Origin: Planctomycetota bacterium | GTDB taxonomy: Bacteria > Planctomycetota > Phycisphaerae > WQYP01 | Direction: 5' to 3' | Assembly: GCA_023489375.1 (NCBI GenBank) | Contig: JAMDCX010000100.1 | Location: 773 to 33,862, forward strand | DNA: 33,090 nucleotides | Shown here: positions 6,695-32,934 of the stretch, in pieces | Layout: each line of letters begins with the position of its first letter | Position numbering within the stretch: position 1 is the stretch's first letter | Notes under the pieces: model-generated | What the model was told of the DNA's origin: nothing | Seen by the model: only the letters and a program-made list of their open reading frames with translations | The model's database searches: none | Position numbers and translations under genes: made by a program

Positions 6695-6770
6695 TTCGTA
6701 ATCGTTTGCGCCTGCGGTGTCCCACCGCGCATCTGAAATCTGAGATTTGAGATTTGAAAATGGACACCAG

Positions 6771-6870
6771 CCGTCGCAAGGCGTTGGGATGTTGCAAGGC
6801 CTTGATACAGGTATGTGGACGCCAACATTGCAATTAGGCACCAGCATCGCAATGCGGGTGGTGTGCACCG
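6771..6870 (+). repeat. Repeat module X, copy A
   Basis: Aligns by eye at roughly two-thirds identity with 18831-18960. Shared blocks are CGCAAGGCGTTG, ATG(T/C)GGACGC, TTG(C/T)AAT, GCACCAGCATCGC(A/C)ATGCGG(G)TGGT. Confidence 0.6.
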
Positions 6871-7083
6871 GCTTGGCAATGCGACCGAAAAGTGAAAAGT
6901 GTTCTATGTCCGGAGGTGGATTTAGCCGGTGGCATTGTGCCGCCGTGAATCCTCCACCAGGCGAAGTCAATGTTCGCAAGTGGAAACTAAACCACCGTAG
7001 CGTGTTATGGTGTTGGAGCCGTGCTTCACAGCAATTCAATCAGGATGGTGTTGAAGTGGGCATCAAGCCAGGCAGACGTTATG

Positions 7084-7227
7084 AACGAGATCGCAATAAT
7101 TTCCACAAAGTGGCGGTACTGGTTGGTGCGTGGATTCCGGAGTACTGTCCGTCAAATAGCCACAGGCTTGGCCGGTGGTGGAGTATTCAATAGTAATGCC
7201 AATCGGGAAGTTATTACGGTTCCATTG
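7084..7227 (+). repeat. Repeat module Y, copy A (~145 bp)
   Basis: About 90 percent identical by eye to 18656-18800. It contains the hairpin CCACAGGC-TTG-GCCGGTGG (7160-7178). It is closed by the long-range inverted repeat AATAATTTCC (7095-7104) / GGAAGTTATT (7206-7215). Confidence 0.85.
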
Positions 7228-7266
7228 CTTATTCACAGAGGTGCCTGATTTTACGGAGTGATATTT

Positions 7267-7926
7267 ATGGCACGCCGTAGTTCCGCCATGCCGGGGCTGT
7301 TGCGCCCAGAAACACTGATTCTCGCGGCGGCCTGTTTGATGGCGGGTATCTGGCTGGGGCATCTACGCCCCGCAAGTCCTCAGGCCCGGCTCCAATCCAC
7401 CAGTTCGCTGCGGGTATATTTTTCTCCGGATGGCGGAGCTACACATGAATTAGTGCGCCTTATCAATGCCGCACAAAAAAACATTGAAGTTCAAGCCTAC
7501 AGTTTTACCAGCAAACCGGTCATAGCGGCGTTAATCCGTGCCCGGCAACGAGGCGTCAAGGTTGCCATTATTCTGGACCGCTCTAACGTGGAGCGCAGAA
7601 ATTATCGTACCCGGACTTATCGTCGTTTCATCAGTCCCGGTCTGGAGGCTGTGTACACCGCCGGTATTCCAACTTACATTGACGATCGTTATCTTATTGC
7701 CCATAACAAAGTTATGCTGATTGACGGCCACATCATCATCACCGGCAGTTTTAACTTCAGTTACGCCGCCGCGCATTTTAACGCTGAAAACATGCTGGTA
7801 ATCCGGAATGTCCCCGCCTTGTTTAACCGATATGAGAAAAACTTTCTGTTTCATGAACACACCAGCGCACGGTATCAACCCGGGCTGGTGCTGGAACATC
7901 AATTTCATTTTCCAGATGGTCATTAA
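7267..7926 (+). CDS. Phospholipase D-family protein with a single HKD motif, Nuc-like nuclease type, with an N-terminal signal/anchor
   Basis: HKD motif AHNKVMLIDGHIIITGSFNFS. The N-terminal hydrophobic segment LILAAACLMAGIWLG follows a basic stretch. The track start at 7258 is a GTG, whereas the ATG at 7267 has GGAG 9 nt upstream. The size (~220 aa) is typical of single-HKD Nuc-like enzymes. Confidence 0.8.
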   Translation: MARRSSAMPGLLRPETLILAAACLMAGIWLGHLRPASPQARLQSTSSLRVYFSPDGGATHELVRLINAAQKNIEVQAYSFTSKPVIAALIRARQRGVKVAIILDRSNVERRNYRTRTYRRFISPGLEAVYTAGIPTYIDDRYLIAHNKVMLIDGHIIITGSFNFSYAAAHFNAENMLVIRNVPALFNRYEKNFLFHEHTSARYQPGLVLEHQFHFPDGH

Positions 7927-8054
7927 ACTGCACCCCACGTAACCGGTCGGGGAGATGTTGCCGGCATTGGTGGCGGCGATCAATTGCTTCGCCACGGCAA
8001 CCGGCACCGGCACACTAAGCTTGGGCGGTAGAATTTGTGGATTCTGTATGATAA

Positions 8055-8074
8055 AAATTTGTAATCGTTCACGG
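8055..8074 (+). repeat. Intergenic motif copy (aaatttGTAATCGTTCACGG)
   Basis: 13/14 match to consensus GTAACCGTTCACGG, with an A/T-rich 5' flank. It is the left arm of an inverted pair with 8171-8189. Confidence 0.85.
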
Positions 8075-8170
8075 CCATGCCGAAGGGCCATAGTGAGGGC
8101 GGTTTTGGTGTACCCCAAAGTGGGGGCAGCCCTTGTGGTGTGGGCTGCCAGCCTGCTGCAGTCACCTCAT

Positions 8171-8189
8171 CGTGAACGGTTACAAATTT
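8171..8189 (-). repeat. Intergenic motif copy, reverse orientation (CGTGAACGGTTACaaattt)
   Basis: Its reverse complement, aaatttGTAACCGTTCACG, matches 8055-8073 at 18 of 19 positions. Confidence 0.85.
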
Positions 8190-8215
8190 CGCGTAACGGC
8201 GATCATTGGGGCCGG

Positions 8216-8225
8216 GAACGGTTAC
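8216..8225 (-). repeat. Partial motif copy (GAACGGTTAC)
   Basis: gggAACGGTTACaccaatt shares the core and the A/T flank. A still weaker copy, ggACGGTTcCcaaattt, lies at 8347-8363. Confidence 0.4.
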
Positions 8226-8246
8226 ACCAATTAATTGTAAACAGTT

Positions 8247-8295
8247 AAAAAAAGCATGGCCGGCAAGGGAAGCTGCTACCCTTTACCGGCCATGC
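8247..8295 (-). terminator. Intrinsic (Rho-independent) terminator on the minus strand
   Basis: On the minus strand the sequence is GCATGGCCGGTAAAGGG - 9-nt loop - CCCTTGCCGGCCATGC, a 16-17 bp GC-rich stem with one bulge, followed directly by T7 (the A-run at 8247-8253 on the + strand). It lies about 245 nt downstream of the M48 peptidase stop. Confidence 0.75.
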
Positions 8296-8539
8296 GAGGG
8301 CAAGATGGATCATCACAACCGTCCGCATGCCCCCATAGGCATCCTGGGACGGTTCCCAAATTTCACGATGATTATCATCGCTTATTGCAAGTGATTTGTG
8401 TATCAGTAGTTCACTGAATCGTTCCTAGGGAATTCTCCGATACAGAGTCTAGGAAATTAGCTGTTATTTTCTTGCCATATAAGTATTTCAAGTGGGGCTT
8501 GATGCGGTATAGGCCTGAATTCAGCGGTGATTGGCTTCA

Positions 8540-10024
8540 TTATGGGTGTATCGCCCAGACCGCCAAAGCCATACCCGTGGCGGCGGCGAGCAGAATACCG
8601 ATGCGCATCGACACGATCTGACGGTTGAACCGTCGTTGCATTTCTGGGGATATGGCCAGAGCGGCCAGCAGGTTCATACGATTTTGCAGACTTGGGTGCA
8701 GCCATCCGGCGCGATCCGGTGGGTGGTTGGCCAAGTCCACCAGTGTGCTTAAACTTTCGGAAAATATTCTGGCCCCGGCCTGTGCGGGCGTTTCCAAATT
8801 ATCTTCGTTGATGTCCGAATGATCGTAATGACTGTCGGCGATCATAACTACGGTCGCACCGGAAGTCTGTGTTTTATGTGCGGCGGCGATACGCGCGGCC
8901 ATATAACGGGCCGCAAACCAGTCCGCCTGATGTTCACATAACCGGCTTACACGCGAAAAAGCAAATACAATCAGCAGCGCCACAATGGAAAAATTCAGCA
9001 GCATGACGGTGTTATCTCCCAGAGACCAGATATTCCCGGCCCACAGAGAAAGGCCCGTGCCCAGAAGATCAGCGGCGACAAAGGTTAACAGATACCACCA
9101 TATATGCCGGTGATGCCCATGCCCCACTTCATGCGCAAATACGGCCTCCACCTGTTGCGGTTCCAGCCGCTCAATGAGTAAATCCGTCAGCAGAAAATAA
9201 CGACACCAGGGCCACAACCCCAATATGGCAGCATTGGGAATGCGGTAATAGGTGTTCCATACACGTATGTCCACAAAGCCCACCTTGTGGCGGCGGGATA
9301 GCTCTTCCAACCGTGTGCGCAACGGTCCGTCCGGTAAGGGAGTGGTACGCCAATAACGTACCACCACGGCCGGCAGTATGACCAGCAGCACCAGCGCCGG
9401 CAGCACGGTGACAACTACGGACCAGTTGCCCAGATGCCAATGATTCATCAACGTTGTGATCGGAACGGTTAGAAAATCAAAAGCCAACAGCACAATCAAC
9501 AGGGATAGCCCATGTCGGAATTGCATGTGGACGTACTGCCAGCGCGTAGGCGGCTGGTGCATGGGATGAGTTGAAGCCTCTGACAAAATTTCGGCCTGAT
9601 GCTGGAGTATCAGTTCCAAGGGATATTCCAGAGACCATATCGCCAACCACGTCAGCACCGGGGCGGTTAACCAGATCACTGAAGACAACACCGGAATTCG
9701 CCCGGCATTCCATTGATATTTTACCAGCCAGCCCAGGCCGAAAATCCATAAATCCGCCGCCAGCAGAGCGGTGTTCAATGCCAGCAACCGGCGCACCACG
9801 CGTTGAATGGCCCTGTTGATAGCTGCGGGCGATAGCGATCCGGTTTGCCATTGCCGGCACATCCGGGCGAACCGTTGCCGCGCTGTAATCAACAGTGTTC
9901 CGTGCGCCAGTATCACCAGTAAAATCACGGTACCGGCGGATAGTGGAACGGCAGGCCGCTGCGGTGCGCTGTCAAAGGCTGCCACGATTAAAAGAAGAAT
10001 AATAACCTGCAGGGGTGCAATCAT
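8540..10024 (-). CDS. Integral-membrane M48-family zinc metallopeptidase
   Basis: 494 aa with multiple hydrophobic spans. HExxH zinc site in FAHEVGHGHHRHIWWY. Confidence 0.8.
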   Translation of the reverse strand: MIAPLQVIILLLIVAAFDSAPQRPAVPLSAGTVILLVILAHGTLLITARQRFARMCRQWQTGSLSPAAINRAIQRVVRRLLALNTALLAADLWIFGLGWLVKYQWNAGRIPVLSSVIWLTAPVLTWLAIWSLEYPLELILQHQAEILSEASTHPMHQPPTRWQYVHMQFRHGLSLLIVLLAFDFLTVPITTLMNHWHLGNWSVVVTVLPALVLLVILPAVVVRYWRTTPLPDGPLRTRLEELSRRHKVGFVDIRVWNTYYRIPNAAILGLWPWCRYFLLTDLLIERLEPQQVEAVFAHEVGHGHHRHIWWYLLTFVAADLLGTGLSLWAGNIWSLGDNTVMLLNFSIVALLIVFAFSRVSRLCEHQADWFAARYMAARIAAAHKTQTSGATVVMIADSHYDHSDINEDNLETPAQAGARIFSESLSTLVDLANHPPDRAGWLHPSLQNRMNLLAALAISPEMQRRFNRQIVSMRIGILLAAATGMALAVWAIHP

Positions 10025-10122
10025 GATTTTATTCTACACGCGGATCGATTCTAATGAACAACCCCGCAACATCTTTCCAGGAACTGGACCCGACACGATC
10101 TCGGGGCACTAATTCTGACGCA

Positions 10123-10200
10123 CCGTCCCGCAGATAACCACAGGCTTGGCCGGTGGCGGCTTCATCGCGTGTTGCGCCCATCGGGACGTTCTCTCGCGGT
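10123..10200 (+). repeat. Repeat module Y, truncated and divergent copy C
   Basis: It shares the identical 19-nt hairpin CCACAGGCTTGGCCGGTGG (10138-10156) and the flanking GTCC(C)G ... ATCGGGA(C) segments, which can pair (CGTCCCG 10124-10130 with CGGGACG 10182-10188). Confidence 0.65.
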
Positions 10201-10234
10201 TGTCGGTCTGCGGGGCTGCTGTGCCGCAGCTGGT

Positions 10235-11293
10235 TTAAAAAGTCATACGAATAAATAAGCCCACGATGGTGGCATCGCTATGCGTGCCGGCGGGTTGCGC
10301 ATAGCGCGTGCCGGCGAAGATGCTGTTGATGACCGCACCGATTTCGTAGTGGCCGCGATTTTCCGGTATATGGCAGATTCCATTAAGCGGATAGGTAATG
10401 GTGGTGCCGACAAACGTGCCCAGATAGCCATCACGGTAACTGCGCCGGTTGACATCCAGCCGTTTTTCATCGTGAATGAAGGAAACGCTCAATGGCGAAT
10501 AAATCGTCAGGCCGCCGGTATGGGGCACCACAAAAATCGGATCCACACCAACTTCAAAGTATTGCCCGGCGCCGCTGGTGTAGTACGCACCGTTATAATC
10601 GAATCCAACCATAATAAACGGATGGAAGGCGAACTGGCCGAAATAGCGATCATCGTTGAGACTTAAGCGTATATAGGCCTCCTGGCTGTCTTCCTGCCCA
10701 TGACCTGTGACCGTATTGCCGATGGGGTTATTTGAAGGTACGAAATACCGGCTTACCGGAGTGATGTAATTGGTATAACCGGTATCAACTCTAAGCAGAT
10801 CCATAAGGTCATATTGATAGCCTATGGTGACATCCGCCTCCGTAAAATTGCTGGATGGAACAAACCCGATATTGCCCCCCGCGACGGGTGTTCCCGCGGT
10901 GCCCTGGGCCAGAGAGTTGATGTAGACATTACGGATGTCATAGGAATAGTCCGTGAAGGTGCGTAAATAAACGCTGCCTAATTTGTGCAGGCTGAAACTC
11001 AGACGCGTGATATTTTGCAGATTCAGGCGATTGGGGGCTACGTCATGATAACGGAACCAGTAATCATTAAAGTAGCCGAATTGCGTCATCAGGCGAATTT
11101 CTTCCGGATGGGTGTGATAAGCGGCCCATGAAGGCAACCCTCCGGAGTTTACAACACTGGCTGGATTATTGGGGGCAAAGGTTGGTGTCGGCAGCGGCAT
11201 AAGGCCATTATCCACACCGGCGGCGGCCGCCGGTCCGGCGATGGTCAGAGTCAGAAGACCACCGAAGGCAACTATGCTTAGTATTTTTATCAT
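10235..11293 (-). CDS. Putative outer-membrane beta-barrel protein of unknown function
   Basis: Signal peptide MIKILSIVAFGGLLTLTIAGPAAAAG. The sequence has alternating aromatic/Gly-rich beta-strand character and a C-terminal ...GLFIRMTF ending in Phe. It lies 25 nt downstream of the LptD-like gene on the same strand. Confidence 0.6.
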   Translation of the reverse strand: MIKILSIVAFGGLLTLTIAGPAAAAGVDNGLMPLPTPTFAPNNPASVVNSGGLPSWAAYHTHPEEIRLMTQFGYFNDYWFRYHDVAPNRLNLQNITRLSFSLHKLGSVYLRTFTDYSYDIRNVYINSLAQGTAGTPVAGGNIGFVPSSNFTEADVTIGYQYDLMDLLRVDTGYTNYITPVSRYFVPSNNPIGNTVTGHGQEDSQEAYIRLSLNDDRYFGQFAFHPFIMVGFDYNGAYYTSGAGQYFEVGVDPIFVVPHTGGLTIYSPLSVSFIHDEKRLDVNRRSYRDGYLGTFVGTTITYPLNGICHIPENRGHYEIGAVINSIFAGTRYAQPAGTHSDATIVGLFIRMTF

Positions 11294-11318
11294 CGATGCG
11301 CTCCATGGCTCAACGTCG

Positions 11319-14300: not shown

Positions 14301-14513
14301 GATTGGATAAATGGTCGGCGTAATGGGTTGTTCCAGTATCTGGCTCCGGACCATACATGGGCCGAGAACGATGGTGGCCAGAATGGCGGCCATGGCGGCG
14401 CGGCGAAATATGCAGATGAAAGCGGGATTCGCCTGATACGTCGATTGTTTGTTTCTTCGTGTTGCTGTCACAATCCCGCTCAAGTACATTCCACCACGGA
14501 TACCAGACGACAC
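11319..14513 (-). CDS. LptD/OstA-like LPS-assembly outer-membrane protein
   Basis: OstA-like N-terminal repeats include ILAEGQVRIEVGYRRIAADHAVIWL and VTITYGHQTLHANQVYYDFTTNRAILL. These are followed by a junction resembling the LptD barrel start (KLSTDEFYQPHYYIGASAMTV) and a ~600-aa aromatic-rich barrel. The likely true start is the ATG at 14393 (MAAILATIVLGPCMVRSQ, signal-like). Confidence 0.6.
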   Translation of the reverse strand: MSSGIRGGMYLSGIVTATRRNKQSTYQANPAFICIFRRAAMAAILATIVLGPCMVRSQILEQPITPTIYPILKPTGSISVPLQVAADHTTTWENNDGTIHILAEGQVRIEVGYRRIAADHAVIWLHPQGQGQSGFYKVQIYLAGQVVIREGAGNAAVSTAEEMLVTTRITARVRLSGPPPLAKNEAHNPIVLRGKKLIEEIATAPQAPEAIPTIEISPTELALSNGWFARGSRLPAPPAPRQPGPPVALHLKPGQPPHRAPPTPIVMATGNIITEEVIGRQRVTVAKGEFFLFRKLPGHNALELRANNAVMFSPIRTRGAAGAPVPTKITNHSITQKVLGVYLDGDVTITYGHQTLHANQVYYDFTTNRAILLHAVLSSEIVQAKSPLYMRAGEIIQEAQGQFEAKSVKLSTDEFYQPHYYIGASAMTVRSIAAPTPPGGKPKTAYYAFTATKTTANFFGVPFFYWPYVSGTTQQSPSPLKAASIGDSNIFGVTATTDWNLLELMGITPPGGVEADVSVNEYSKRGPAVGLNSRYDVGSMRGVVNSSLMYDTGTDQLGANRDNLPVPQHTRGYIFARYLQQLSRQWSVAVEGSYVSDPNYLEQYFPYVYATAPEQQTSVYVEQQHHTEAFTVLGKWNLTGFITNADLENNEYTVQRYPEAHYYREGDKLLGLFTYYSDTSGGMINDQFSDTTSGIRALQLNFPGLNPNETFSQYYLSNGWTDQPVARVDSRQEIDFPMAAGPVQFDPFVSGRLTYWDTTFPAVNNQIGGGTTRVWGTVGFRSSTTFSKLYPDVKSDLLDIDQLRHIIEPQISMFVTGANIQQGYLQPFDRNVEGITDASGAEFALRQMLQTKRGRPGQRQIVNWITFNVAADVFWNNHLSGPFDPNNPQYAGAPFSTSDFGTPVIGYYDWSRPELSQIADSINANFKWRLGANVEFLADESWNINVQQLEELDSGVEVNQTPNLSYFLGNRYIRAVDSDQWTAAISYKLTSKYSIAAAESYDFALGQNVLSEVSLVREIPRFFVGITLAYNADTASSAAMVSIWPANFPQVGIMQQQALLAVEP

Positions 14514-14603
14514 TTGTCGACATTTTTACGCCGGCACATCAACGCCACGTGCAGAGATCATAGAGCGCCTGAGGAATACTGAAAAGTCCCACTCCGTTAA
14601 TAG

Positions 14604-14617
14604 ATAACCGTTCACGG
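14604..14617 (+). repeat. Intergenic motif copy (ATAACCGTTCACGG)
   Basis: 13/14 match to consensus. It lies 91 nt from the annotated start of the LptD-like gene. Confidence 0.8.
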
Positions 14618-14833
14618 TATGATCACCAGCATCGCCCGATATTATACTGTATACGTCTATTAATGATACATCTGATACACATTATTGCTCTAAAATCAGT
14701 ACTTTTTCGCATTATTCACTTCTCCCCATGTATCATTAGAAGCCGCGTTGAGTATAGCCACCTGATGAAACGCTTTTGAAACGCAAGACGTGAAAAACCC
14801 GGAATAATATATTCATGGATCGTTAGATATTGT

Positions 14834-14845
14834 GTAATCGTTCAC
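14834..14845 (+). repeat. Intergenic motif copy (GTAATCGTTCACaa)
   Basis: 11/14 match to consensus, inside the AT-rich spacer. Confidence 0.6.
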
Positions 14846-15011
14846 AAATAAGATAACAACCGTCATACGCATTGCTGCTTTGGGTAATCTATTATGAAAA
14901 GTAAATGATGCGGGACAGTGCCAAGTTGGGGCCATCATGTGGATCAGATGTCTCCTTGATAGCCGCATATAGTATATAACCGCATGCAATGGTGGTGCCG
15001 GGTAGCCGTTG

Positions 15012-15025
15012 TATCCAATTGGATA
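15012..15025. promoter_or_regulatory. Perfect 14-bp palindrome TATCCAATTGGATA (candidate protein-binding site)
   Basis: Exact dyad read from the sequence. It lies in the 565-bp spacer about 55 nt beyond the stop of the 1128-aa gene. Function unknown. Confidence 0.3.
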
Positions 15026-15078
15026 AAAGTTATGCTGTCAAGATACTTTATCCATAGTAGCTCAACGTCATACCCCTG

Positions 15079-18465: not shown

Positions 18466-18541
18466 ATCCGATCCCCTAAACGCTCAAGTAAAGGAATGGC
18501 AAAAGTTTCCCTTTCCATTACCCGACTTATTAGTGCTTTTT

Positions 18542-18575: not shown

Positions 18576-18590
18576 GTTAACCGTTCACGG
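18576..18590 (+). repeat. Intergenic motif copy (GTTAACCGTTCACGG)
   Basis: 13/14 match to consensus. It lies 111 nt from the start codon of the 1128-aa gene and faces the copy at 18983-18993. Confidence 0.8.
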
Positions 18591-18655
18591 CGTGATAAAT
18601 TACGAAATATAGAAATATAAAAGACATAATATGGATACATTTTCTATACATAAAG

Positions 18656-18800
18656 GAACGAGATCGCAATAACTTCCACCAAGTGGCTGTACCGGTTGGT
18701 GCGTGGATTCCGGAGCACTGTCCGTCAAAATAGCCACCGGCTTGGCCGGTGGTGGAGTATTCAATGCTCATACCAATCGGGAAATTATTACGGTCCCATT
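18656..18800 (+). repeat. Repeat module Y, copy B (~145 bp)
   Basis: Same orientation as copy A. The internal hairpin is perfect here: CCACCGGC-TTG-GCCGGTGG (18734-18752). Confidence 0.85.
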
Positions 18801-18830
18801 CCAAACCTGTTATTGGTGGGCGTACTACGA

Positions 18831-18960
18831 ACCACCGCAAGGCGTTGCGGGGCTGCATGGGCGTTAATCTTCCAATGCGGACGCAAAAGTTGTAATAGAG
18901 CACCGGCATGGCATTGTGGCAGGCGAGCACCAGCATCGCCATGCGGTGGTCGACACCCGC
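18831..18960 (+). repeat. Repeat module X, copy B (with an internal ~20-nt duplication)
   Basis: See copy A. Here X follows Y, whereas in the 6695-7266 spacer X precedes Y. Confidence 0.6.
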
Positions 18961-18982
18961 TCATGTATAATTCTCAGCTATA

Positions 18983-18993
18983 TGAACGGTTAC
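18983..18993 (-). repeat. Intergenic motif copy, reverse orientation (aTGAACGGTTACttttt)
   Basis: Its reverse complement is aaaaaGTAACCGTTCAt. It lies about 40 nt beyond the HAD gene stop. Confidence 0.6.
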
Positions 18994-22394: not shown

Positions 22395-22444
22395 TGCCAC
22401 TGACATCGCCGTTGGGATACCGTGTATAGAACAATAAGAGGCTT

Positions 22445-22456
22445 GTAACCGTTCAC
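22445..22456 (+). repeat. Intergenic motif copy (GTAACCGTTCACag)
   Basis: 12/12 match to the core. It lies 50 nt after the stop of the IscA-type gene. Confidence 0.8.
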
Positions 22457-22715
22457 AGTCTGACCACCTTGTGAACCACTGTTGAACCGCAAATGGGAAC
22501 AGGTTACGGGGGACAGGTTACAGGTTATAGCACCGTTGTTGTTCATTAATCTTTGATCATTGTTGTTCACAACAGAGGAATCAGAGATAACTGCCCCCAG
22601 TAATTCTGTAACCTATAATCTGTAACCTCCGTTATATCGTCGTGTCGTTGTGGTGGTGAAATAATTTTGTTTATATTCATTATTTAATTGCCTTATGATT
22701 TTTCACAATATGACC

Positions 22716-22730
22716 CCGTGAACGGTTACC
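22716..22730 (-). repeat. Intergenic motif copy, reverse orientation (CCGTGAACGGTTACCattttt)
   Basis: 14/14 match to consensus plus the A/T flank. It faces the copy at 22445. Confidence 0.85.
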
Positions 22731-22907
22731 ATTTTTAACCGCAGATTCGCTTATACCATCCGGATAAGCGTGGCGCAAATTCGCGGCGGCACTCTGCCGC
22801 CGGATAAATGCAAATTTCAAACTACCGCATTCTCGTCCTGTCCCCTGTACCATACAACCTGCAACCTTTATCGCCCACCGACTCGCATTTTCCCCGTCTC
22901 CTGTCTC

Positions 22908-22935
22908 CTAAATGCTAAATACTAAATACTAAATG
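22908..22935. repeat. Tandem heptamer CTAAATR x4
   Basis: ctaaatg ctaaata ctaaata ctaaatg, read directly from the sequence. Confidence 0.9.
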
Positions 22936-22944
22936 TATTCCTGC

Positions 22945-22965
22945 ATTCTACTCATTACTCATTAT
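22945..22965. repeat. Heptamer array attctac tcattac tcattat
   Basis: 19 of 21 positions match 25241-25261. In both loci a reverse-orientation motif copy follows within 20-35 nt. Confidence 0.85.
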
Positions 22966-22996
22966 CCACTTATATTTTAATTTATCGCGATATAAA

Positions 22997-23012
22997 CCTG
23001 TGAACTCTTACC
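22997..23012 (-). repeat. Degenerate motif copy (CCtGTGAACtcTTACC)
   Basis: 13 of 16 positions match the copy at 22716-22730 plus the preceding C at 22715. It lies 82 nt upstream of the ruvA ATG. Confidence 0.4.
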
Positions 23013-23036
23013 GATCCCCATGGCTCCGAGTATACT
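23008..23036 (+). promoter_or_regulatory. Candidate sigma70-like promoter for ruvA (TTACCG - 17 nt - TATACT)
   Basis: The hexamers lie at 23008-23013 and 23031-23036. The -35 overlaps the degenerate motif copy. Prediction by eye only. Confidence 0.25.
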
Positions 23037-23093
23037 ATCTTCGTTGGCTCGCGGTGTTGGTTTTGCTGGAAACTCGAACAGGTTGCATACACA

Positions 23094-23714: not shown

Positions 23715-23909
23715 TGAGAAAAATTCAAACCGTTTGTCTTGACCAGCTGAATGACGCTGGACGGGTCAACACCGCTTCCCTTTGGACGAGGCCGTATTTT
23801 TGCTTTACCGCCGGCATACGATCTCAACTCCGTCCGGCAGAATGTGTGGCGATAAAACGCCCCTGCGCGCCGGGAATAATACCAGCATTGGATACCAGGG
23901 AACCAGACC

Positions 23910-24956: not shown

Positions 24957-24977
24957 AATGTACCTTCTCGGCATGCC

Positions 24978-25035
24978 ATCTACCTTGCCGCGGTTGACCG
25001 CATCCGAGCACTGCACCCCCGCGGGCAAGGTAGAT
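24978..25035. repeat. Inverted repeat ATCTACCTTGCC(G)CGG ... CCGCGGGCAAGGTAGAT downstream of ruvB
   Basis: 12 perfect bp plus 4 more across a 1-nt bulge, with a ~25-nt loop. The left arm context (GGCATGCCATCTACCTTGCC) resembles the left arm of the 25156 repeat. No T-run follows. Confidence 0.7.
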
Positions 25036-25070
25036 ACGCTATCACAACGTATATCTAAGATTTGAAATTT

Positions 25071-25085
25071 GGTAATCGTTCACGG
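25071..25085 (+). repeat. Intergenic motif copy (gaaatttGGTAATCGTTCACGG)
   Basis: 13/14 match to consensus plus the flank. It lies 115 nt after the ruvB stop. Confidence 0.85.
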
Positions 25086-25155
25086 ACACACGGCTTAGCC
25101 AAACGGGTTATGGTTGTTGTTGCGTGGTTATGTAGGATAAATACAGGAGTTCCGT

Positions 25156-25237
25156 GGCATGGGCATCTTGCCAATGAACAGTGCGTTCCGGTTGCCTGAT
25201 AACATGGCCATAGCGTCACGGGCAAGATGCCCATGCC
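25156..25237. repeat. Perfect 17-bp inverted repeat (GGCATGGGCATCTTGCC ... GGCAAGATGCCCATGCC) with a 48-nt spacer
   Basis: Arms at 25156-25172 and 25221-25237 are exact reverse complements. Confidence 0.9.
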
Positions 25238-25240
25238 ATA

Positions 25241-25268
25241 ATATTACTCATTACTCATTATTCATTGA
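25241..25268. repeat. Heptamer array atattac tcattac tcattat tcattga
   Basis: Four tandem 7-mers. This is the partner of 22945-22965. Confidence 0.85.
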
Positions 25269-25283
25269 ACGCCGTGGCCATGT

Positions 25284-25297
25284 CGTGAACAATTACC
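25284..25297 (-). repeat. Intergenic motif copy, reverse orientation (CGTGAACAATTACCtatttttt)
   Basis: 11/14 match to consensus plus the flank. It abuts the stop codon of the DUF4340-like gene and faces the copy at 25071. Confidence 0.6.
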
Positions 25298-27249
25298 TAT
25301 TTTTTAAGCAGTGTTTGGACTGCTGATACCAGGCTGTCATGGGGCTGGAAACTCCAAACGGGAAGCCCTCTGGCAACTCCAGTTTCCGAGAGTTCAGCAC
25401 GCCATTGAAATGTGGGTGCCGGAGCCGAGGTTTTCCCCTTGACCGTTGAGCGTGGCGATTTTGGCAATGTGATCCGCCAGAGCGTTAATACATCATGCTT
25501 CCAGATATAGTTCATTTTGGAGGGTGTTGAAGGCTTTTTCTTATTCGCCGGCGTGGCGGTCGGAAGCGCCGGCTTGACCGCATGCCGCAGTGCAAGATCA
25601 ACTATAATGGGTGGAACGGAGGAAACCGATCGCATATTGATAAACCATTTTTTGGCCCGCAGTGGTCTCCATGCGGACAGGAGGTTATTCACCGCGCCGG
25701 CGGGAGCGGGTGTTGACCCCCGTAACCATCGGCCTTTGACCTTATGGATTGTAACTGTGGTTCCCGCCCGGCGGATCGTAATACGGCGAGGGTTCGCTGC
25801 GGCAAGATCAGTCACTTTTTTACCGCGCAAGCTGGTAAGTTGAGGCAGCAGTGGTTTGATGGCCACCGGACTGACCATATAAATACTTGGCCAAGGCGAT
25901 ACTTTTACCGGAATCAATCCCGAATGTTGTACCGCGCCAAAGGTCAAGGTGATGGGATGAACATGGTCGGGTATGGTAATTTCCCAAGTCGCGGATGGAC
26001 TGGTCAAACCCAAAGCGACCATATTCGTGGGTTTATCAAGGAACCTTTTGGCCGTTACTGTATGCACGTCTGCAAGTAATTTGGTTACCGCCCCGGTACC
26101 GGCCGGAACGTTGCGGTTGGCGGCCTCTAATATCTGCCATTGGCCGTGCGTCCTGGCCAGGGTCAGGGTGGCTGGAGTATTGCCGGTAATACCATTTCTG
26201 CGGGTAATGACGATATGTGAAGCCTTGCTGACATCGGCCGCGAGCAGATGGTAATCGCGCAGCGCGGCGAAGGATTCATAAAGTTGCTGGAAAGAGGTGT
26301 TTCGCACCACGCACACGCCGGGATTATAACTGCTTTGGGTATAGAGAAATTTTCCCGTCAGATCCGTCTTAATGCCAAATTGAATTACCAGCGGCGCCGG
26401 AGCGGGCGGAGTTTTAACTGGAGCGGTTTTATTTTTATTCGGTGTGGCCACAAGAGGATGCGGCGCCTTGAAATCCACCGTGATGGTAAGTGGACCATGA
26501 GTCAGTCCGGCGCGGGCGGCGGGAATATTGGCGAAGCGGTGCGCGGTGAGCAATTGCAGATTACTGATCCAGGTAGTGACCTTGGACTTGTCCACCGGCG
26601 CCGGCAGCGGCTGGTTGAAAGCCCAGGTTTTTCCATGCGGTACCAGGCGCATGGTTCCGGAGTCCGTACGGAGGGTGATGGCGGCGATATTCCGCGTGTG
26701 GAAGGAAGTCAGTGAGCGGTTCCGGAATTTTCGTACCGGGCGCTCCAGGCGACGCAGCCAATCCGCTTTCACAATATCGATATATGGATCATGTACCCCC
26801 GCCAGATGGACATACAACCGCCCGGTGGCATTGAGCGAACCGATATTCAAGGTAAAGGTTTTCCCCGCCTGATTGACCACCGTGAGAACAGCCTTTGGTT
26901 TTTCCAGACCGGTGTGTGCCAGAGTATGATGTCCGCGGGATGCTATTCTGGCGCGATAACGCCACTGCAAATCAGCCAGCGTGCCTGCCAGATCGCCAAT
27001 GGCATAATCCCGGCCCCGGGCTTTTATTGGGCTGACAATAAACCAGTGTGTACCGACGCGCTTAAACGCCAGCTGAGGCCCATGGGCTGATTTAAATGAA
27101 AAACGATCCAGGGCCGTGGGATGAGGGAGAAATACATAATGATGTTTTGCCGGTGATGTGGACGCATGAGGCTGGCGGTTCACATAGGCCACCACCCCCA
27201 CCAGAACAATCAGAACGAGAAGTACCGCTATGGTCAATCGCAAATTCAT
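25297..27249 (-). CDS. DUF4340-like signal-anchored protein, the terminal gene of the ABC/GldG-like cluster
   Basis: 650 aa. The N-terminal anchor reads MNLRLTIAVLLVLIVLVGVVAYV. Its position directly after a GldG-like gene is the usual context of DUF4340 proteins. No enzymatic motif was recognised. Confidence 0.6.
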   Translation of the reverse strand: MNLRLTIAVLLVLIVLVGVVAYVNRQPHASTSPAKHHYVFLPHPTALDRFSFKSAHGPQLAFKRVGTHWFIVSPIKARGRDYAIGDLAGTLADLQWRYRARIASRGHHTLAHTGLEKPKAVLTVVNQAGKTFTLNIGSLNATGRLYVHLAGVHDPYIDIVKADWLRRLERPVRKFRNRSLTSFHTRNIAAITLRTDSGTMRLVPHGKTWAFNQPLPAPVDKSKVTTWISNLQLLTAHRFANIPAARAGLTHGPLTITVDFKAPHPLVATPNKNKTAPVKTPPAPAPLVIQFGIKTDLTGKFLYTQSSYNPGVCVVRNTSFQQLYESFAALRDYHLLAADVSKASHIVITRRNGITGNTPATLTLARTHGQWQILEAANRNVPAGTGAVTKLLADVHTVTAKRFLDKPTNMVALGLTSPSATWEITIPDHVHPITLTFGAVQHSGLIPVKVSPWPSIYMVSPVAIKPLLPQLTSLRGKKVTDLAAANPRRITIRRAGTTVTIHKVKGRWLRGSTPAPAGAVNNLLSAWRPLRAKKWFINMRSVSSVPPIIVDLALRHAVKPALPTATPANKKKPSTPSKMNYIWKHDVLTLWRITLPKSPRSTVKGKTSAPAPTFQWRAELSETGVARGLPVWSFQPHDSLVSAVQTLLKK

Positions 27250-27312
27250 GGTGCCGAATCCTTCAGAATCTTGAATGGTAATGACGGTTCGACCGTCTCG
27301 TTTATACTAGAT

Positions 27313-29451
27313 TTAAATACGCCGCCGCGCCACATACACCATTAAACCAATGGCCACGGCCAAAATCGCCGGCATGGCAAAACTGGACAGGCGAACCAAG
27401 GCTTCTTCACTGCCGCTCATGCGTTCAATACGCAAAGCTACGGTAGCACGCGGGCTGGCCGCAATCAGATGCGATTGGTGCGCCAACCAGTAAATGCTGT
27501 TCATGAACAATTCCGCGTTACCCGGAAAATTGGAAATCATGGTCAAAGCGCCATTGGCGATCGCCGGAGTTCCGGAATTGATCAACTGGTCGGTGATAAA
27601 CATCACATTGCCGATGGCAATGATGCGCCGCCCACCCTTGCTGGCCATCACTCCCAGGGGCACGGGAGATTTGAGATCGGCGGAGGGATTAAACGCCGCA
27701 TCTGGCGCCGCCGGCTGCGTTTGTCCAAAAATATCCGGACTGGACGCGGTTTGCAGAAATACGCTGGTCCGTACGCCCTGCGGCTGCGGCACCATGGTGC
27801 CGACATACGTAGGCGAGAGAATAAAGGCCCCATTTTGCGCCGGCGCTCCGGCAAGCATGGTGGCCAGCGATTCCACGGGTTTCGTGATGATGGTATCCGG
27901 GTAACTACTGATTTGAATTTGCGGTACATCCACATGCTGACCGCCCTGCACAGCCATACGCTGTACTACCTGATACGTACTGCGTAAACGAACTCCATAA
28001 CCCGCCAAAATGCTTTTGTAGGGAATCTGTCCCTGGGTCATCATCATTAACTGCGGCGGCATGGCGCTGAGTAAAAACAGCGCATTGCCGCCATCCGCCA
28101 GCTGCACACTGATTTTCTGCTCCAGCAGAGAATAGATCATGGCTCCCATTTGCGCCATCTGACCCGATGGCGGTAAATCCAGAATCACCCAGATGACACC
28201 TTTTCCGATAGCCGGCGGTGTTTCACTGCTGGTCGGCGATTGTGGATTGCCGCCCGGTCCGGGCGACCACTGATATACTTTGAAGTTATTTTGCCGCAGC
28301 ATTTTCGCCGCCGCCGAAAATGGTCCGCCCGCGGAAATAAGATTCATGGCATTGGCACTGACAAAGACGACTTTGGTGCGGTGGGTTTCCGTCATGGCCA
28401 GGAGGGCGGAATTCACCGCTTGTTCGCCTTGAAAGAGATACTGTACACGCCCCAGGCCGGCATTTCCCTGCGGTATAAACAACTTATCACGCCGCAGCAC
28501 CTGAACCGTCCGGGGTCCAATGACTATTAAACTGTCGGCCCGCAGCGCACTTAATACATGGCTGGATTTTACGGGTTTCAGGCCGTTGAGAAGGTCCATA
28601 TAGGCTTTTATTTTCGCGGCTTGTGCGGCCAGCAGGCCGGCATCTTGTTTTAGAAGTTTCTGCACCAGCGGACTGAAGGCGGACAGAACATTCTTCTTGC
28701 TTAAGGCCTCAAACTGCTGGCGTATACTGCGGAGATTGGAGACCAGAGACCCCGTCAGCTCTGGCCAGTCCGGCAGCGGATTTTTCCGCGTCGCCGCAAC
28801 TTTTCTCTCAAGACGCTCGACCAGTCGCGGTACCCCGGCACTGCGGCTGAAGCTCAATTGCAGGGTGGCAAAATTCTGCGATTGATCGCTGGTGGTGGCC
28901 ACAGCCGGGTTGTTGGCCAGGGCGTTAATTTTCTTCGCTTCCGAGGTCGAGAAGGTGATCAGTTCCGCGGCCAGGGGTGTGAATTGATTTACCACTTGCC
29001 GGTAGGAAGCAAACTGTCCGCCAAAACGCCTGCGTATTTTCAACTTCAAGTCGTTAAGTGTGGCGGGCTTGTATTGAACAATATGAGAAGATTGGTCCGT
29101 ATACTCGCGGATGAGGCGTTGAATTTTCAAGCCCTGGGCGCGTTCCCCGGGGTCCGCGTCCAGGGAAGTTGGAAATTCATTAACCAGGTAAAACTTTTTT
29201 CCGGTCTTATCCACGAGCTTCAACAAATCCAGGGTTTTGGGCGACAGCGAATATATGCCGCCGGTGGTGCAGTCTTTGGAATAGTTAAAGCGTACCGACA
29301 GCCAATCCACAAACACCACGACCAGCACCGCCGCGATTATCAGAATTGCGGTGTTGGAACCATAAATGGATCGGCGTTTACCGGCATTCCAGACCGGCTT
29401 TCCGGTTGTGGGGGTCCCCGTCGGTTTGTCTTTATTGTCTATGTGCGCCAT
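27313..29451 (-). CDS. GldG-like auxiliary component of an ABC-type transport system (ABC_transp_aux-like)
   Basis: 712 aa. An N-terminal TM (AILIIAAVLVVVFVDWL) and a C-terminal TM (FAMPAILAVAIGLMVYVARRRI) bracket a large extracytoplasmic domain. The gene follows the ABC-2 permease with a 43-nt gap. Confidence 0.65.
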   Translation of the reverse strand: MAHIDNKDKPTGTPTTGKPVWNAGKRRSIYGSNTAILIIAAVLVVVFVDWLSVRFNYSKDCTTGGIYSLSPKTLDLLKLVDKTGKKFYLVNEFPTSLDADPGERAQGLKIQRLIREYTDQSSHIVQYKPATLNDLKLKIRRRFGGQFASYRQVVNQFTPLAAELITFSTSEAKKINALANNPAVATTSDQSQNFATLQLSFSRSAGVPRLVERLERKVAATRKNPLPDWPELTGSLVSNLRSIRQQFEALSKKNVLSAFSPLVQKLLKQDAGLLAAQAAKIKAYMDLLNGLKPVKSSHVLSALRADSLIVIGPRTVQVLRRDKLFIPQGNAGLGRVQYLFQGEQAVNSALLAMTETHRTKVVFVSANAMNLISAGGPFSAAAKMLRQNNFKVYQWSPGPGGNPQSPTSSETPPAIGKGVIWVILDLPPSGQMAQMGAMIYSLLEQKISVQLADGGNALFLLSAMPPQLMMMTQGQIPYKSILAGYGVRLRSTYQVVQRMAVQGGQHVDVPQIQISSYPDTIITKPVESLATMLAGAPAQNGAFILSPTYVGTMVPQPQGVRTSVFLQTASSPDIFGQTQPAAPDAAFNPSADLKSPVPLGVMASKGGRRIIAIGNVMFITDQLINSGTPAIANGALTMISNFPGNAELFMNSIYWLAHQSHLIAASPRATVALRIERMSGSEEALVRLSSFAMPAILAVAIGLMVYVARRRI

Positions 29452-29494
29452 AAGAAATTAAATCTCCGATCATGCGTTGTTCGTGGTACGTCGG

Positions 29495-30301
29495 TTATCT
29501 CCATTTGCGACTTTCCAGCACAATGTAGGTCAGGAATAAAAACAGCCCGGCTCCGGAGAGAAAAAATACGACATTTCGGCTGTCGACCAGGCCGCGGGAA
29601 AAGTTGACCATGTGCGGTTCAATAGCCAGATAACGCAACACATGCCGCAGCGTTCGCAACCAGGCCCAGGAAACACCCAGGGCTGCGCCGAGAAAATACG
29701 AGATTGCCTGGAACAGAATGCCCAGCGCCACCAGGGTGACACAACTGCTCATGGCGGCGAGTATCTGGTGTTGCGTACAGGCGGAGAAAAATAAACCAAT
29801 GGCCACCATCAGCAAGCCCATCAGGAACAGCCCCAGGTAACTGGTCAGCACGGTCATATAATCCGGTCGGCCGAACAAAGACAGAATAATTATAAAAATC
29901 AGGCTGGAGGCAATAACCACGCAATAAAAGCCCATGGCCCCCAGAAATTTTCCCAGCAGCAGCTGCCAATCCGTAATGGGGCTGGTGCGGAGCGTTTCAA
30001 TACGACCGGATCTGTATTCCTCGGAAAAAAGGGACATGGTCATAAACGGCACTACGAATATTAAAATCAGGTGGTTCCATTGAAACATGGGGCCGGGATC
30101 GGCAATGGCCCCCGGCTGCATGACCAGCAACGCAAACAGCAATCCCACAAAAAGCAGATAAATCGCCAGAACGATATATCCAATGGGGGAATAGAAAAGT
30201 CCTGAAATTTCACGTTTGGCCAGCGCCAGAACTGTTGACATATCTAATTCTCCATACCACTTCACCACGGTTCTGTTCATCTTCCGGTGGTGAATATGCA
30301 A
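29495..30301 (-). CDS. ABC-2 type transporter permease (GldF-like)
   Basis: About six hydrophobic helices. The gene lies 6 nt downstream of the ATPase gene. The likely true start is the ATG at 30241 (MSTVLALAKREISG). Confidence 0.8.
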   Translation of the reverse strand: MHIHHRKMNRTVVKWYGELDMSTVLALAKREISGLFYSPIGYIVLAIYLLFVGLLFALLVMQPGAIADPGPMFQWNHLILIFVVPFMTMSLFSEEYRSGRIETLRTSPITDWQLLLGKFLGAMGFYCVVIASSLIFIIILSLFGRPDYMTVLTSYLGLFLMGLLMVAIGLFFSACTQHQILAAMSSCVTLVALGILFQAISYFLGAALGVSWAWLRTLRHVLRYLAIEPHMVNFSRGLVDSRNVVFFLSGAGLFLFLTYIVLESRKWR

Positions 30302-30307
30302 TTTCCA

Positions 30308-31276
30308 TCATGCCGCCGCCGCAGCGCCCGGATCAGTAATTTGAACGAAAAACTCTTCCAAGCTCGCCCCGCTGCTGCGCATTTCCCGCAAGGCCCAGCC
30401 CCGCTGCTGAATTAACGCCGCCATCTGCTCCCGCAGGGCGCCATCCAGTTTGCCCGTCAATTCCAGCGTGGCTACGGTCGTATCGGAAATTATCCGAACC
30501 TGATCCACCCCCGGCAAGGCCGCCAGGGCAGAGCGTATCTGATCCGCGGGACCGCGTATTTCCAGCACCAGCTTCGCCCCGGCTCCGCGTTGGGCACATT
30601 GCTGTTTTAATTCTTCCGGCGAGCCCTGAGCCAGAATTTTTCCGCGCCCGATGATAATAACTTTCTGACACACCAATTCCACTTCCGAGAGTATATGCGT
30701 GGACAGCAGCACCGTATGCATCCCCGCCAGATTGGCGATTAATTTGCGCGTTTCACGAATTTGCGCGGGATCCAGCCCCACCGTCGGTTCATCCAATATC
30801 AGCACGGGAGGGTTGTGCAATAACGCATCGGCGATTCCCAACCGTTGCCGATAGCCTTTTGAGAGCTTGGAAATGGGCCACCGCCGGCGATCCGCCAGCC
30901 AGCATAGTTCTGTAACTTCAGCAATCCGCTCTTTGAGACGCGATCGATCCATACCGCGCAACCGTCCGCGGAATTGCAGATATTCCGCGACACGCATTTC
31001 CATATACACGGGGGCATTTTCCGGCAGATACCCCAGATGGCTCCGCACCTTTAATGAATCATGAAAAACATCAAAACCCGCCACGCGCGCCGACCCGCTG
31101 GTGGGCGGCATAAAACAGGTCAGCATACGGATGGTCGTGGTTTTTCCCGCACCGTTCGGCCCTAAAAAACCCACCACCATGCCTTTGGGTACCGCAAAGC
31201 TGATGTTATCCACGGCTAAAAATTTGCCGTAGGCTTTCGTCAATTCTTCGGCGACGATTTCCGCGGGTTGCGACAT
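30308..31276 (-). CDS. ABC transporter ATP-binding protein (ABC-2/GldA-like exporter type)
   Basis: Walker A GPNGAGKTTT, signature LSKGYRQRLGIA, Walker B VLILDEPTVGLD, H-loop STHIL. Confidence 0.92.
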   Translation of the reverse strand: MSQPAEIVAEELTKAYGKFLAVDNISFAVPKGMVVGFLGPNGAGKTTTIRMLTCFMPPTSGSARVAGFDVFHDSLKVRSHLGYLPENAPVYMEMRVAEYLQFRGRLRGMDRSRLKERIAEVTELCWLADRRRWPISKLSKGYRQRLGIADALLHNPPVLILDEPTVGLDPAQIRETRKLIANLAGMHTVLLSTHILSEVELVCQKVIIIGRGKILAQGSPEELKQQCAQRGAGAKLVLEIRGPADQIRSALAALPGVDQVRIISDTTVATLELTGKLDGALREQMAALIQQRGWALREMRSSGASLEEFFVQITDPGAAAAA

Positions 31277-31471
31277 TCATTTCTCCTCATAACCGTTATT
31301 TTTCAAGCCCCCCTTATTCCGTCGGGGATTCCACCGCCCCTTTTACTACATGGAGCCATACGAATTGTCAAACATTCCGGTTTGCTATTTCCATTCCGAC
31401 GGTTCCCATGGACATCGGTATTGGCGGTTGCCCACCGCCTTGCCTTTGGGCCTCTTTACGCAACTTCCGTA

Positions 31472-32845
31472 TCATCTCCGGCGGCGTGTCGGAAAACGTC
31501 CGGAAAGGGGACGTCGAGCCGTGGCTGGAGCGGCGGTGAAAGACGTTGGAGCATAGCCGTCGGTGGCGGCCGGGGCTGGAGACATGGCCAAGGAAACACC
31601 GTCCGCCACGGGCGTATCGGTATGGGACGATTCCATACTGCCTGGCGCCGCGGAGCCGGGACGTTTGCTGGGTTCCAAGGACGGCATAAAACCAGGAATT
31701 CTATATTCTTCCAGCAGGCGATTGATGAGTTTCTCAATCTCCGTCTGCTGTTGCGCCTGTCCGATGGAAACAAACGTAAAAGCCTTACCAGTGGCCCCCA
31801 TGCGTGCGGTGCGCCCCACACGATGTACATACGCTTCAGGATCTTCCGGAACATCATAATTTATGACATGGCTGATCTCATGAACATCGATGCCACGGCT
31901 GGCCAGATCCGTAGCTACCAGAACGTTGATTTTTCCGGTGCGAAATCCGCGCATGACCCGCTCACGCTGAGTTTGCATCAAATCCCCATGGATGGGGGAG
32001 GCGTTGACACCGCGTTCGCACAGGGCATGGGCGACTTTATCGACGCTGCGTTTCGTGCGGCAGAAAACGATAGCCAGTGTTGGCCGCTCATGCTGGAGCA
32101 ACAAACGCAAGGCCCTCAATTTATCCCACGGTTGTACACCGACAACATATTGTACCGCCTCCGGATTGGTGAGTGTTTCATCGGCCCTGGCGGTAAAAAA
32201 ACGTTGCGGATGATTCATGTGCTGCTGTACCATTCGCTCAATTTCATCATTGATGGTGGCGGAAACAAAAATGGTTTGCCGCGGACTTTTACACAAGGAT
32301 AGTATCTTGCGCACATCATCGCGGAAGCCGATATCAAACATCCGATCTACTTCGTCAAATACAACGAATTTCATATTGCCCAGCGGCAGATAGCCGCGTT
32401 CATTAAGATCCAGAATACGGCCCGGCGTACCCACCACAACGTATGGATGGCGCTCCAGCAGTTTGATTTGATGCTGAATTTTTTGTCCGCCATAGACCAC
32501 GACCATGTGGTAGGGTTTATGCCGGGCGAAGCGCACCATTTCGGCTTCCACCTGAATGGCCAACTCGCGGGTCGGTGTGACTATCAGTGCTTGCAGAGGT
32601 TGGGCGGGGTCCAGCCTCTGCAAAATAGGCAGACCAAAAGCGGCGGTCTTACCGGTACCGGTCCGCGCCTGCCCGATAACATCCGCACCCGTCAGTGCCG
32701 CGGGAATCATCAGTTGCTGAATCTCTGATGGCGCAACAAAGCGCAATTCATTGAGAGCCATGACCAGAGCCGGTTCCAATCCCAAGGCGGTAAAGGCGTT
32801 AGACGATTCGGTTAGTGACATGCGATCCTTGCTGATTTCTTTCAT
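31472..32845 (-). CDS. DEAD-box ATP-dependent RNA helicase with an Arg-rich C-terminal tail
   Basis: Q-motif region FTALGLEPALVMALNELRFVAPSEIQ, motif I ARTGTGKTAAF, Ia PTRELA, motif II as VFDEVDRM (DEVD variant), III SAT, VI HRVGRTARMG. Confidence 0.92.
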   Translation of the reverse strand: MKEISKDRMSLTESSNAFTALGLEPALVMALNELRFVAPSEIQQLMIPAALTGADVIGQARTGTGKTAAFGLPILQRLDPAQPLQALIVTPTRELAIQVEAEMVRFARHKPYHMVVVYGGQKIQHQIKLLERHPYVVVGTPGRILDLNERGYLPLGNMKFVVFDEVDRMFDIGFRDDVRKILSLCKSPRQTIFVSATINDEIERMVQQHMNHPQRFFTARADETLTNPEAVQYVVGVQPWDKLRALRLLLQHERPTLAIVFCRTKRSVDKVAHALCERGVNASPIHGDLMQTQRERVMRGFRTGKINVLVATDLASRGIDVHEISHVINYDVPEDPEAYVHRVGRTARMGATGKAFTFVSIGQAQQQTEIEKLINRLLEEYRIPGFMPSLEPSKRPGSAAPGSMESSHTDTPVADGVSLAMSPAPAATDGYAPTSFTAAPATARRPLSGRFPTRRRR

Positions 32846-32919
32846 ATATCATCATGTTTATCATACGACTTCGCCGGCAGGGGTCAACCTGATATACCTT
32901 CCGCCGGCCAAAGGCAATC

Positions 32920-32934
32920 GGTAACCGTTCACGG
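32920..32934 (+). repeat. Intergenic motif copy (GGTAACCGTTCACGG)
   Basis: 14/14 match to consensus. It lies 75 nt from the helicase start codon. Any facing partner would lie beyond the window end. Confidence 0.85.

Follow-up and report, generated by a model that had tools for sequence, protein, structure and literature searches.

Canonical insertion sequences (IS) of the IS66/IS679 type have terminal inverted repeats (TIRs) that start with GTAA, and they generate 8-bp target duplications. A member of the ISBst12 group, ISDge4 from Deinococcus geothermalis, has the TIR GTAACTGCTCAGCA, an 8-bp direct repeat and one open reading frame (ORF) of 449 aa (PMC12898284). Here we investigated a 14-nt motif, GTAACCGTTCACGG, that recurs in a 33,090-nt stretch of DNA (the window) from a metagenome-assembled genome of a Planctomycetota bacterium with a G+C content of 54% (contig JAMDCX010000100.1, positions 773 to 33,862). 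An earlier note on this DNA had described the motif as intergenic and mostly paired, and had read it either as the TIR of MITEs (miniature inverted-repeat transposable elements) or as a boundary site for a DNA-binding protein. Our results indicate that the motif is very probably the 14-15 bp TIR of a single-ORF, ISBst12-like insertion sequence of the IS66 family, and that the facing pairs in the window are MITEs of 123-417 bp derived from it. ISAva2, with the TIR GTAAGGATTCAGGT and the 8-bp duplication CGATAAAG, follows the same pattern as the motif.

The recurrence of the motif is real. Nine copies of GTAACCGTTCACGG with at most one mismatch were found in the window, where 0.01 were expected from dinucleotide-preserving shuffles. 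When up to three mismatches were allowed, there were 18 matches against 2.4 expected, including 14834+, 18980-, 25283-, 7939+ and 22998-. The three-mismatch matches at 4451, 16964, 26710 and 30958 lie inside coding DNA, and their number equals the chance prediction. A position weight matrix (PWM) was derived from validated transposon ends of other genomes, with a score of at least 12 defining a strong site. It returned 13 strong sites in the window, mostly as facing +/- pairs and all 13 in spacers. By the gene map, spacers sum to about 16% of the annotated region (positions 3944-33090).

All eight copies that had been listed with at most one mismatch were recovered, at offsets of 0-1 nt. Among the three-mismatch sites of the earlier note, 14834 was right, and 18983(-) and 25284(-) are really 18980- and 25283- (offsets of 1-3 nt). 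Four or five of its seven degenerate candidates were indistinguishable from noise: 6698 and 7939 scored 6.9 and 8.1, both within the range of chance matches in coding DNA, and 8347, 21948 and 23726 were below the PWM threshold in the window scan. The other two, 8212- and 22998-, are strong sites. The former had been given as 8216(-) and mislabeled as degenerate; it is a one-mismatch copy (8212-8225) and the ninth of its kind. The rule that + copies lie on the left of a spacer and - copies on the right holds in all four spacers for which it had been stated; it fails at 14514-15078, where two + copies have no - partner. The A/T-rich 5' flank of the copies was confirmed as well. This flank is target sequence and lies outside the repeat.

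To place the motif in a wider context, the 15-mer GGTAAYCGTTCACGG was scanned over 185,579 species, one genome each, which gave at least 120 loci. By count of record titles, 49 of the 120 loci listed are from Planctomycetota, spread over many families, and others are from Desulfobacterota, Lentisphaerota, Proteobacteria and Cyanobacteria. The matches fall into two classes, a T variant and a C variant. In many phyla the T variant represents the secA codons for VTVNDYL, spelling GGTAATCGTTCACGG (L017, L019, L021, L022 and about 30 more loci, where L numbers denote the loci retrieved), and T-variant matches were rejected as elements because they are SecA coding sequence. The C variant is found in non-coding DNA, often with an A-rich outer flank and often at contig ends, and among the loci listed it is concentrated in Planctomycetota.

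At the loci listed, the motif occurs as facing +/- pairs, mostly 35-400 bp apart. The 8-bp flanks abutting GTAAC...GTTAC were identical at seven or more of eight positions in 19 of 53 such pairs, 14 of them perfectly. Mismatched flank pairs, which served as a control, reached this level in 0.35% of cases, and an offset of 1-2 nt removed the signal. These matching 8-bp flanks are target-site duplications. The extent of the repeat was determined from 46 ends of 23 elements, comprising 21 with flanks matching at six or more of eight positions, plus L049 and L045, which hold a transposase ORF. Positions 1-14 were conserved at 87-100% and none past position 15, giving the consensus GTAACCGTTCACGG(G). 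The 14-nt extent proposed earlier coincides with the conserved block, in which the information content ranges from 1.3 to 2.0 bits; from position 16 onwards it is about 0. Copies within the same genome were alike solely on the CACGG side, starting from exactly GGTAAC (L040/L093 and L031/L039).

Two facing pairs, about 1.2-1.5 kb apart, hold transposase ORFs (L049 and L045). In L049 (433-1936), the TIRs of a 1,502-bp element bracket a single long ORF (497-1927, 476 aa) with matches to the Pfam families DDE_Tnp_IS66 (PF03050, 4.9e-28), zf-IS66 and DUF6444, and to the NCBIfam model NF033517 'IS66 family transposase' (1e-79). L045 encodes a shorter relative of 344 aa, whose IS66 DDE match is weaker. 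When all ORFs of the fetched loci were searched by phmmer with the L049 protein as query, homologues adjoining the TIR were revealed in five Planctomycetota loci (L030, L086, L024, L045 and L106); none was revealed in the window or its relatives, and none among the window ORFs of at least 50 aa. The stop codon of the transposase, TGA, is located inside the right TIR, which is read CCG TGA ACG GTT AC. ORFs that run into the right TIR and use the TGA within CCGTGAACGGTTAC as their stop were found in L049 (1915-1936), L086 (1285-1303) and L142 (1770-1790), and this overlap may help to keep the TIR conserved. The closest matches in a plasmid collection were single-ORF IS66-family transposases of cyanobacteria. 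On plasmid pB of Chroococcidiopsis sp. CCNUC1, the RefSeq IS66 family transposase WP_250013550.1 is flanked by GTAACCGTTCAAGG and GTAATTGTTCACGG in an element of 1,585 bp with one coding sequence and a perfect 8-bp duplication, GTGAAAAC. The 1.5-kb elements (L049 and Chroococcidiopsis pB) have one ORF each and no room for accessory tnpA/tnpB. An autonomous element of 1.5-1.6 kb with the same termini and a transposase is thus present in other genomes. The MITE-like TIR reading in the earlier note is supported by this finding, in that the same 14-bp repeats, with 8-bp target duplications, enclose an IS66-family transposase there.

The nature of the linked gene also bears on whether the copies could be repetitive extragenic palindromic (REP) or REPIN-type repeats mobilised by a RAYT (HUH tyrosine) transposase. 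The copies are intergenic, numerous and often arranged as inverted pairs able to form hairpins, and REPs have been reported in the Planctomycetes-Verrucomicrobia-Chlamydiae (PVC) superphylum (PMC3733652). However, the single unit is non-palindromic and has no GTAG or CGTC head, and the linked gene encodes an IS66-family DDE transposase and no RAYT. Target duplications of 8 bp flank the pairs, and HUH single-strand transposition is not expected to yield these. Taken together, a REP/REPIN origin is hardly credible.

The identity of the TIR, the 8-bp duplications and the linked transposase are observations from other genomes, to which the absence of the motif from sister species (see below) is added. 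We infer that the same transposition gave rise to the window copies and that these are now inactive. By analogy with known DDE insertion sequences, an IS66-family transposase would bind both GTAACCGTTCACGG ends and join them to target DNA cleaved with a stagger of 8 bp, and repair would then duplicate 8 bp on each side. Any DNA retaining both ends would be movable in trans, and such mobilisation would explain why just 14 bp are conserved and the interiors differ. Insertions would survive in intergenic DNA, here beside A/T-rich sequence, which would give the A/T-rich outer flank. Elements filling originally short ancestral spacers would leave their outer ends beside genes, with the left end in + and the right end in - orientation, which would account for the geometry at the spacer edges. 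The window pairs are short, are bounded by the TIRs of the autonomous IS and contain no transposase gene, which fits the definition of a MITE. The window copies are old, decayed, non-autonomous relics: their ends carry 0-3 mismatches, no duplication is intact, five strong copies are solo, they are identical in all sampled strains, and the window holds no transposase. The solo copies are leftovers of such MITEs.

Table 1. Motif copies and putative elements in the window (positions refer to the 33,090-nt stretch)
Feature	Position	Strand	Terminal repeat(s)	PWM score(s)	Setting and remarks
Doubtful relic	6698..6711	+	GTAATCGTTTGCGC	 	4 mismatches; 3 nt past the stop of a small basic protein gene; indistinguishable from chance
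123-bp MITE	8061..8183	 	8061-8074 (GTAATCGTTCACGG); 8170-8183(-) (GTAACCGTTCACGA)	21.0; 20.8	Between two convergent genes
Solo TIR copy	8212..8225	-	GTAACCGTTCCCGG	19.9	No convincing partner
Solo TIR copy	14604..14617	+	ATAACCGTTCACGG	20.0	Upstream of LptD-like gene
Solo decayed TIR copy	14834..14847	+	GTAATCGTTCACAA	15.0	Same orientation as 14604; exception to facing pairs
417-bp element	18577..18993	 	18577-18590 (TTAACCGTTCACGG); 18980-18993(-) (GTAACCGTTCATAT)	 	 
285-bp element	22445..22729	 	22445-22458 (GTAACCGTTCACAG); 22716-22729(-) (perfect GTAACCGTTCACGG)	21.7; 26.9	 
Solo decayed TIR copy	22998..23011	-	GTAAGAGTTCACAG	14.5	82 nt upstream of ruvA
225-bp element	25072..25296	 	25072-25085 (GTAATCGTTCACGG); 25283-25296(-) (GTAATTGTTCACGA)	21.2; 12.1	Between two convergent genes
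Perfect left TIR	32921..32934	+	 	24.6	75 nt upstream of DEAD-box helicase start codon
Copies with at most one mismatch	8061+, 8170-, 8212-, 14604+, 18577+, 22445+, 22716-, 25072+, 32921+	 	 	 	GTAACCGTTCACGG search
PWM sites scoring at least 12	8061+, 8170-, 8212-, 14604+, 14834+, 18577+, 18980-, 22445+, 22716-, 22998-, 25072+, 25283-, 32921+	 	 	 	 

The copies are set among genes that include those for a PLD-like protein, an M48 peptidase, an LptD-like protein, a HAD hydrolase, an amino-acid permease with a Usp domain, IscA, RuvA, RuvB, a DUF4340 protein, a GldG-like ABC transporter set and a DEAD-box helicase (Table 1). The 123-bp element is abutted by AAATTT at both ends and folds as a single long hairpin closed by the TIRs and AAATTT (-63.5 kcal/mol, z = -3.8), a structure typically seen in MITEs. 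For the nearby solo copy 8212-, the weak site at 7939+ is a possible outer partner, and the nested insertion suggested earlier for the spacer 7927-8539 could not be demonstrated. A - partner was sought for 14604+ and 14834+, and none was found in their spacer, which holds just an internal inverted repeat of 82 nt (14643-14724/14896-14976, 73% identity). This repeat suggests a rearranged or composite element.

The interior of the 417-bp element includes a 145-bp repeat that is also found in another spacer. The two copies (7083-7226 and 18656-18800) are 91% identical, with a weaker partial third copy at 10122-10159, and contain the hairpin CCACCGGC-TTG-GCCGGTGG. A second block is common to 6766-6884 and 18827-18946, and its order relative to the 145-bp repeat is reversed. 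The 145-bp repeat may belong to the 417-bp element as an interior module, or it may be independent of it. The 285-bp element, which is identical in all strains, has ACAGGTT heptamer repeats in its interior, and the arrays CTAAATA and TACTCAT are situated just inside the copy at 22998-23011. In the 225-bp element, the interior contains a 23-bp hairpin and an ATTACTC array, and the right TIR starts directly after the stop codon, TAG, that ends the DUF4340 gene (25283-25299). The 'A-rich flank' at this site is formed by the last codons of that gene (..L L K K stop).

Heptamer arrays are a recurrent feature in or beside the elements (CTAAATA/G, ACAGGTT, TACTCAT and ATTACTC, at 22908-22934, 22499-22527, 22949-22964 and 25243-25266), and the copy number of the CTAAATG array ranged between 3 and 8 in strains that are near-identical elsewhere. 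Such arrays also follow the TIR in other phyla; those of Desulfobacterota (GGTTCAA/GTTCAnn) resemble the inner half of the TIR. Many MITE interiors of Planctomycetota (L050, L055, L071, L088, L108 and L110) have a GGGGAC(A/T)GTCCCC hairpin in common, mostly followed by ATTTTCG. This hairpin module is terminator-like and recurs across families. That the TIR-closed hairpins and heptamer arrays have been co-opted, as bidirectional terminators or insulators or for the tuning of expression, and that the 14-bp TIR defines a cross-phylum MITE superfamily with interiors rebuilt from GTTCAnn, is an unlikely proposal.

The hairpins also raise the question of whether the motif itself could serve in transcription or belong to a structured RNA, for instance as a promoter element, a terminator stem or the 5' end of a small RNA. 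Read on the reverse strand, the motif gives CCGTGAACGGTTAC and then a T-rich run; facing pairs that are close together form a strong hairpin with A and T runs like a bidirectional terminator, and for some copies a start codon follows 75-110 nt downstream. However, the copies are found at both 5' and 3' gene ends as well as between convergent genes, conservation ends after 14-15 nt, and the motif is absent from the sister species. A terminator-like effect would then be a by-product of the TIR hairpin. A structured or tRNA-derived RNA was rejected, as the window had no match to an Rfam family at E<=1 and ARAGORN returned nothing. We therefore give an RNA or transcription signal very little credence.

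The window was also compared with relatives. Ten contigs of the same species carry the motif at identical places, and one spacer aligned across five strains was about 99.5% identical. In sister species with the same G+C content and about 90% RuvB identity, no intergenic copy was present in about 85 kb, and the spacers are tighter than those of the window. The sole orthologous junction compared was that of ruvA and ruvB, which overlap at TAATG in three sister species; in the window, an insert of 195 bp lies between them (23715-23909). This insert starts with AAAAATTC-AAACCGTTTG, its ends are very degenerate and just vaguely TIR-like, and it may represent a very decayed insertion.

A different kind of variation was seen past the copy at 32921, where the strains split into three continuations. 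In strains L001, L002, L003 and L010, the - partner of 32921+ is found about 370 bp further on. From 32967 onwards, the window has an 87% match to a 268-bp MITE of a different family with the TIR GTGCTCTGTCAC(G/A)CCTA(C/A)A(A/T)ATTAGG(G/A)TTGATTGG, which is complete with TA flanks in a sister species (L140, 9052-9319). This second MITE (window 32967-33090) starts at a TA located 33 nt into the IS66-type element and interrupts the 32921 element. It is common to the window, L005 and L007 and is not in L001, L002, L003, L010 and L004, and several contigs end there. The three continuations were thus rejected as polymorphism of the IS66-type family, since that of the window is a different MITE at a TA inside the first element.

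The sister-species data are also relevant to the second reading in the earlier note, in which a DNA-binding protein of the host, for example a nucleoid-associated or termination factor, would recognise the motif as a boundary or insulator site where transcription units begin or end. The position of the copies at the edges of spacers, their A/T-rich side facing the nearest gene, the partial dyad GTnAnCGnTnAC in the 12-nt core and the identity of the 15-mer across distant phyla would suit such a site. Yet a housekeeping boundary signal should be shared by close relatives, and their roughly 85 kb contained none. Copies elsewhere have 8-bp target duplications, with an IS66 transposase gene between or beside them, and a conserved transposase accounts for the cross-phylum identity. 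In addition, many matches are at contig ends judging from the positions listed, as multi-copy repeats would be, and one spacer violates the orientation rule. No role could be demonstrated for the dyad. A host boundary site is accordingly not supported, and we regard it as very improbable. The broader idea of a phylum-wide functional signal, raised by the share of about 40% Planctomycetota among the loci listed, was dropped in view of the target duplications, the linked transposases and the sister-species absence. To our knowledge, neither the sequence nor the distribution of the motif fits parS, sigma-54 or ECF promoters, LexA, Rex, DnaA boxes, Ter, attC cores or DNA-uptake sequences.

Several observations weigh against an origin of the window copies as IS66-type MITEs. 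The 8-bp flanks of the four window pairs, which span 123, 417, 285 and 225 bp, match at 4, 2, 1 and 4 of 8 positions, with 6 bp of AAATTT common to both sides of the first. Target-site duplications are present in other genomes and none is intact here, so that a single clean insertion is undemonstrated for each of the four. Their loss is consistent with decay or rearrangement. Five of the 13 strong copies are solo, and the neighbouring copies 14604 and 14834 have the same orientation. No presence/absence polymorphism of the IS66-type family was detected among ten near-identical strain loci, which are too alike to be informative. No full-length IS66 copy was present in the roughly 35 kb examined from the window species, and no clean orthologous empty site was recovered in the sister species because synteny with them is broken.

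The motif is ordinary mobile-DNA debris whose parent family is now identified, and it involves no new kind of biology. Several spacers of the window are largely old IS66-type MITE insertions, alongside other repeat families, which explains why long repeat-filled spacers are found here and tight or overlapping genes in the sister species. The 14-mer provides a simple marker by which this IS/MITE clade can be annotated in Planctomycetota, Desulfobacterota and further environmental phyla, whose metagenome assemblies are fragmented by such repeats. Genome-wide scans with the T variant pick up the secA VTVNDYL codons as a source of false positives. The results also call for caution, as abundant intergenic motifs need not be regulatory sites.

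No published description of this TIR was found in the literature on planctomycete motifs and IS66 MITEs, and a full-text search with 12-mers returned unrelated primers only; the REP paper (PMC3733652), a Thiomargarita MITE paper and a P. syringae MITE paper describe other elements. Among bacterial MITEs, the Correia elements of Neisseria are similar in being short, non-coding, TIR-bounded, multi-copy, intergenic and hairpin-forming, and in being presumed to move in trans through a related IS. They differ in that the elements described here have an IS66-type TIR and an 8-bp duplication instead of TA targets, and very heterogeneous interiors, often with tandem heptamer arrays. Canonical IS66/IS679 elements (tnpA, tnpB, tnpC; about 2.5 kb) share the transposase family by Pfam and NCBIfam, whereas the elements here (L049 and Chroococcidiopsis pB) are without tnpA/tnpB. 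The ISBst12 group, with ISDge4, is closer: it has the same single ORF of about 450-480 aa (IS66 DDE plus zinc finger), length of about 1.5 kb, TIR starting with GTAAC and 8-bp duplication. By these features the clade described here is ISBst12-like; its transposases are planctomycetal and cyanobacterial, and the window has decayed, non-autonomous derivatives alone. The ISDge4 TIR GTAACTGCTCAGCA matches the window motif at 9 of 14 positions, with a different inner half (CCGTTCACGG against TGCTCAGCA). The element on Chroococcidiopsis pB, in contrast to the window copies, is full-length, apparently intact and cyanobacterial, and its transposase is about 35% identical to that of L049. It nevertheless has nearly the same TIRs (GTAACCGTTCAAGG and GTAATTGTTCACGG), an 8-bp duplication and a stop codon inside the right TIR, and its right end closely resembles the window copy at 25283- (GTAATTGTTCACGA).

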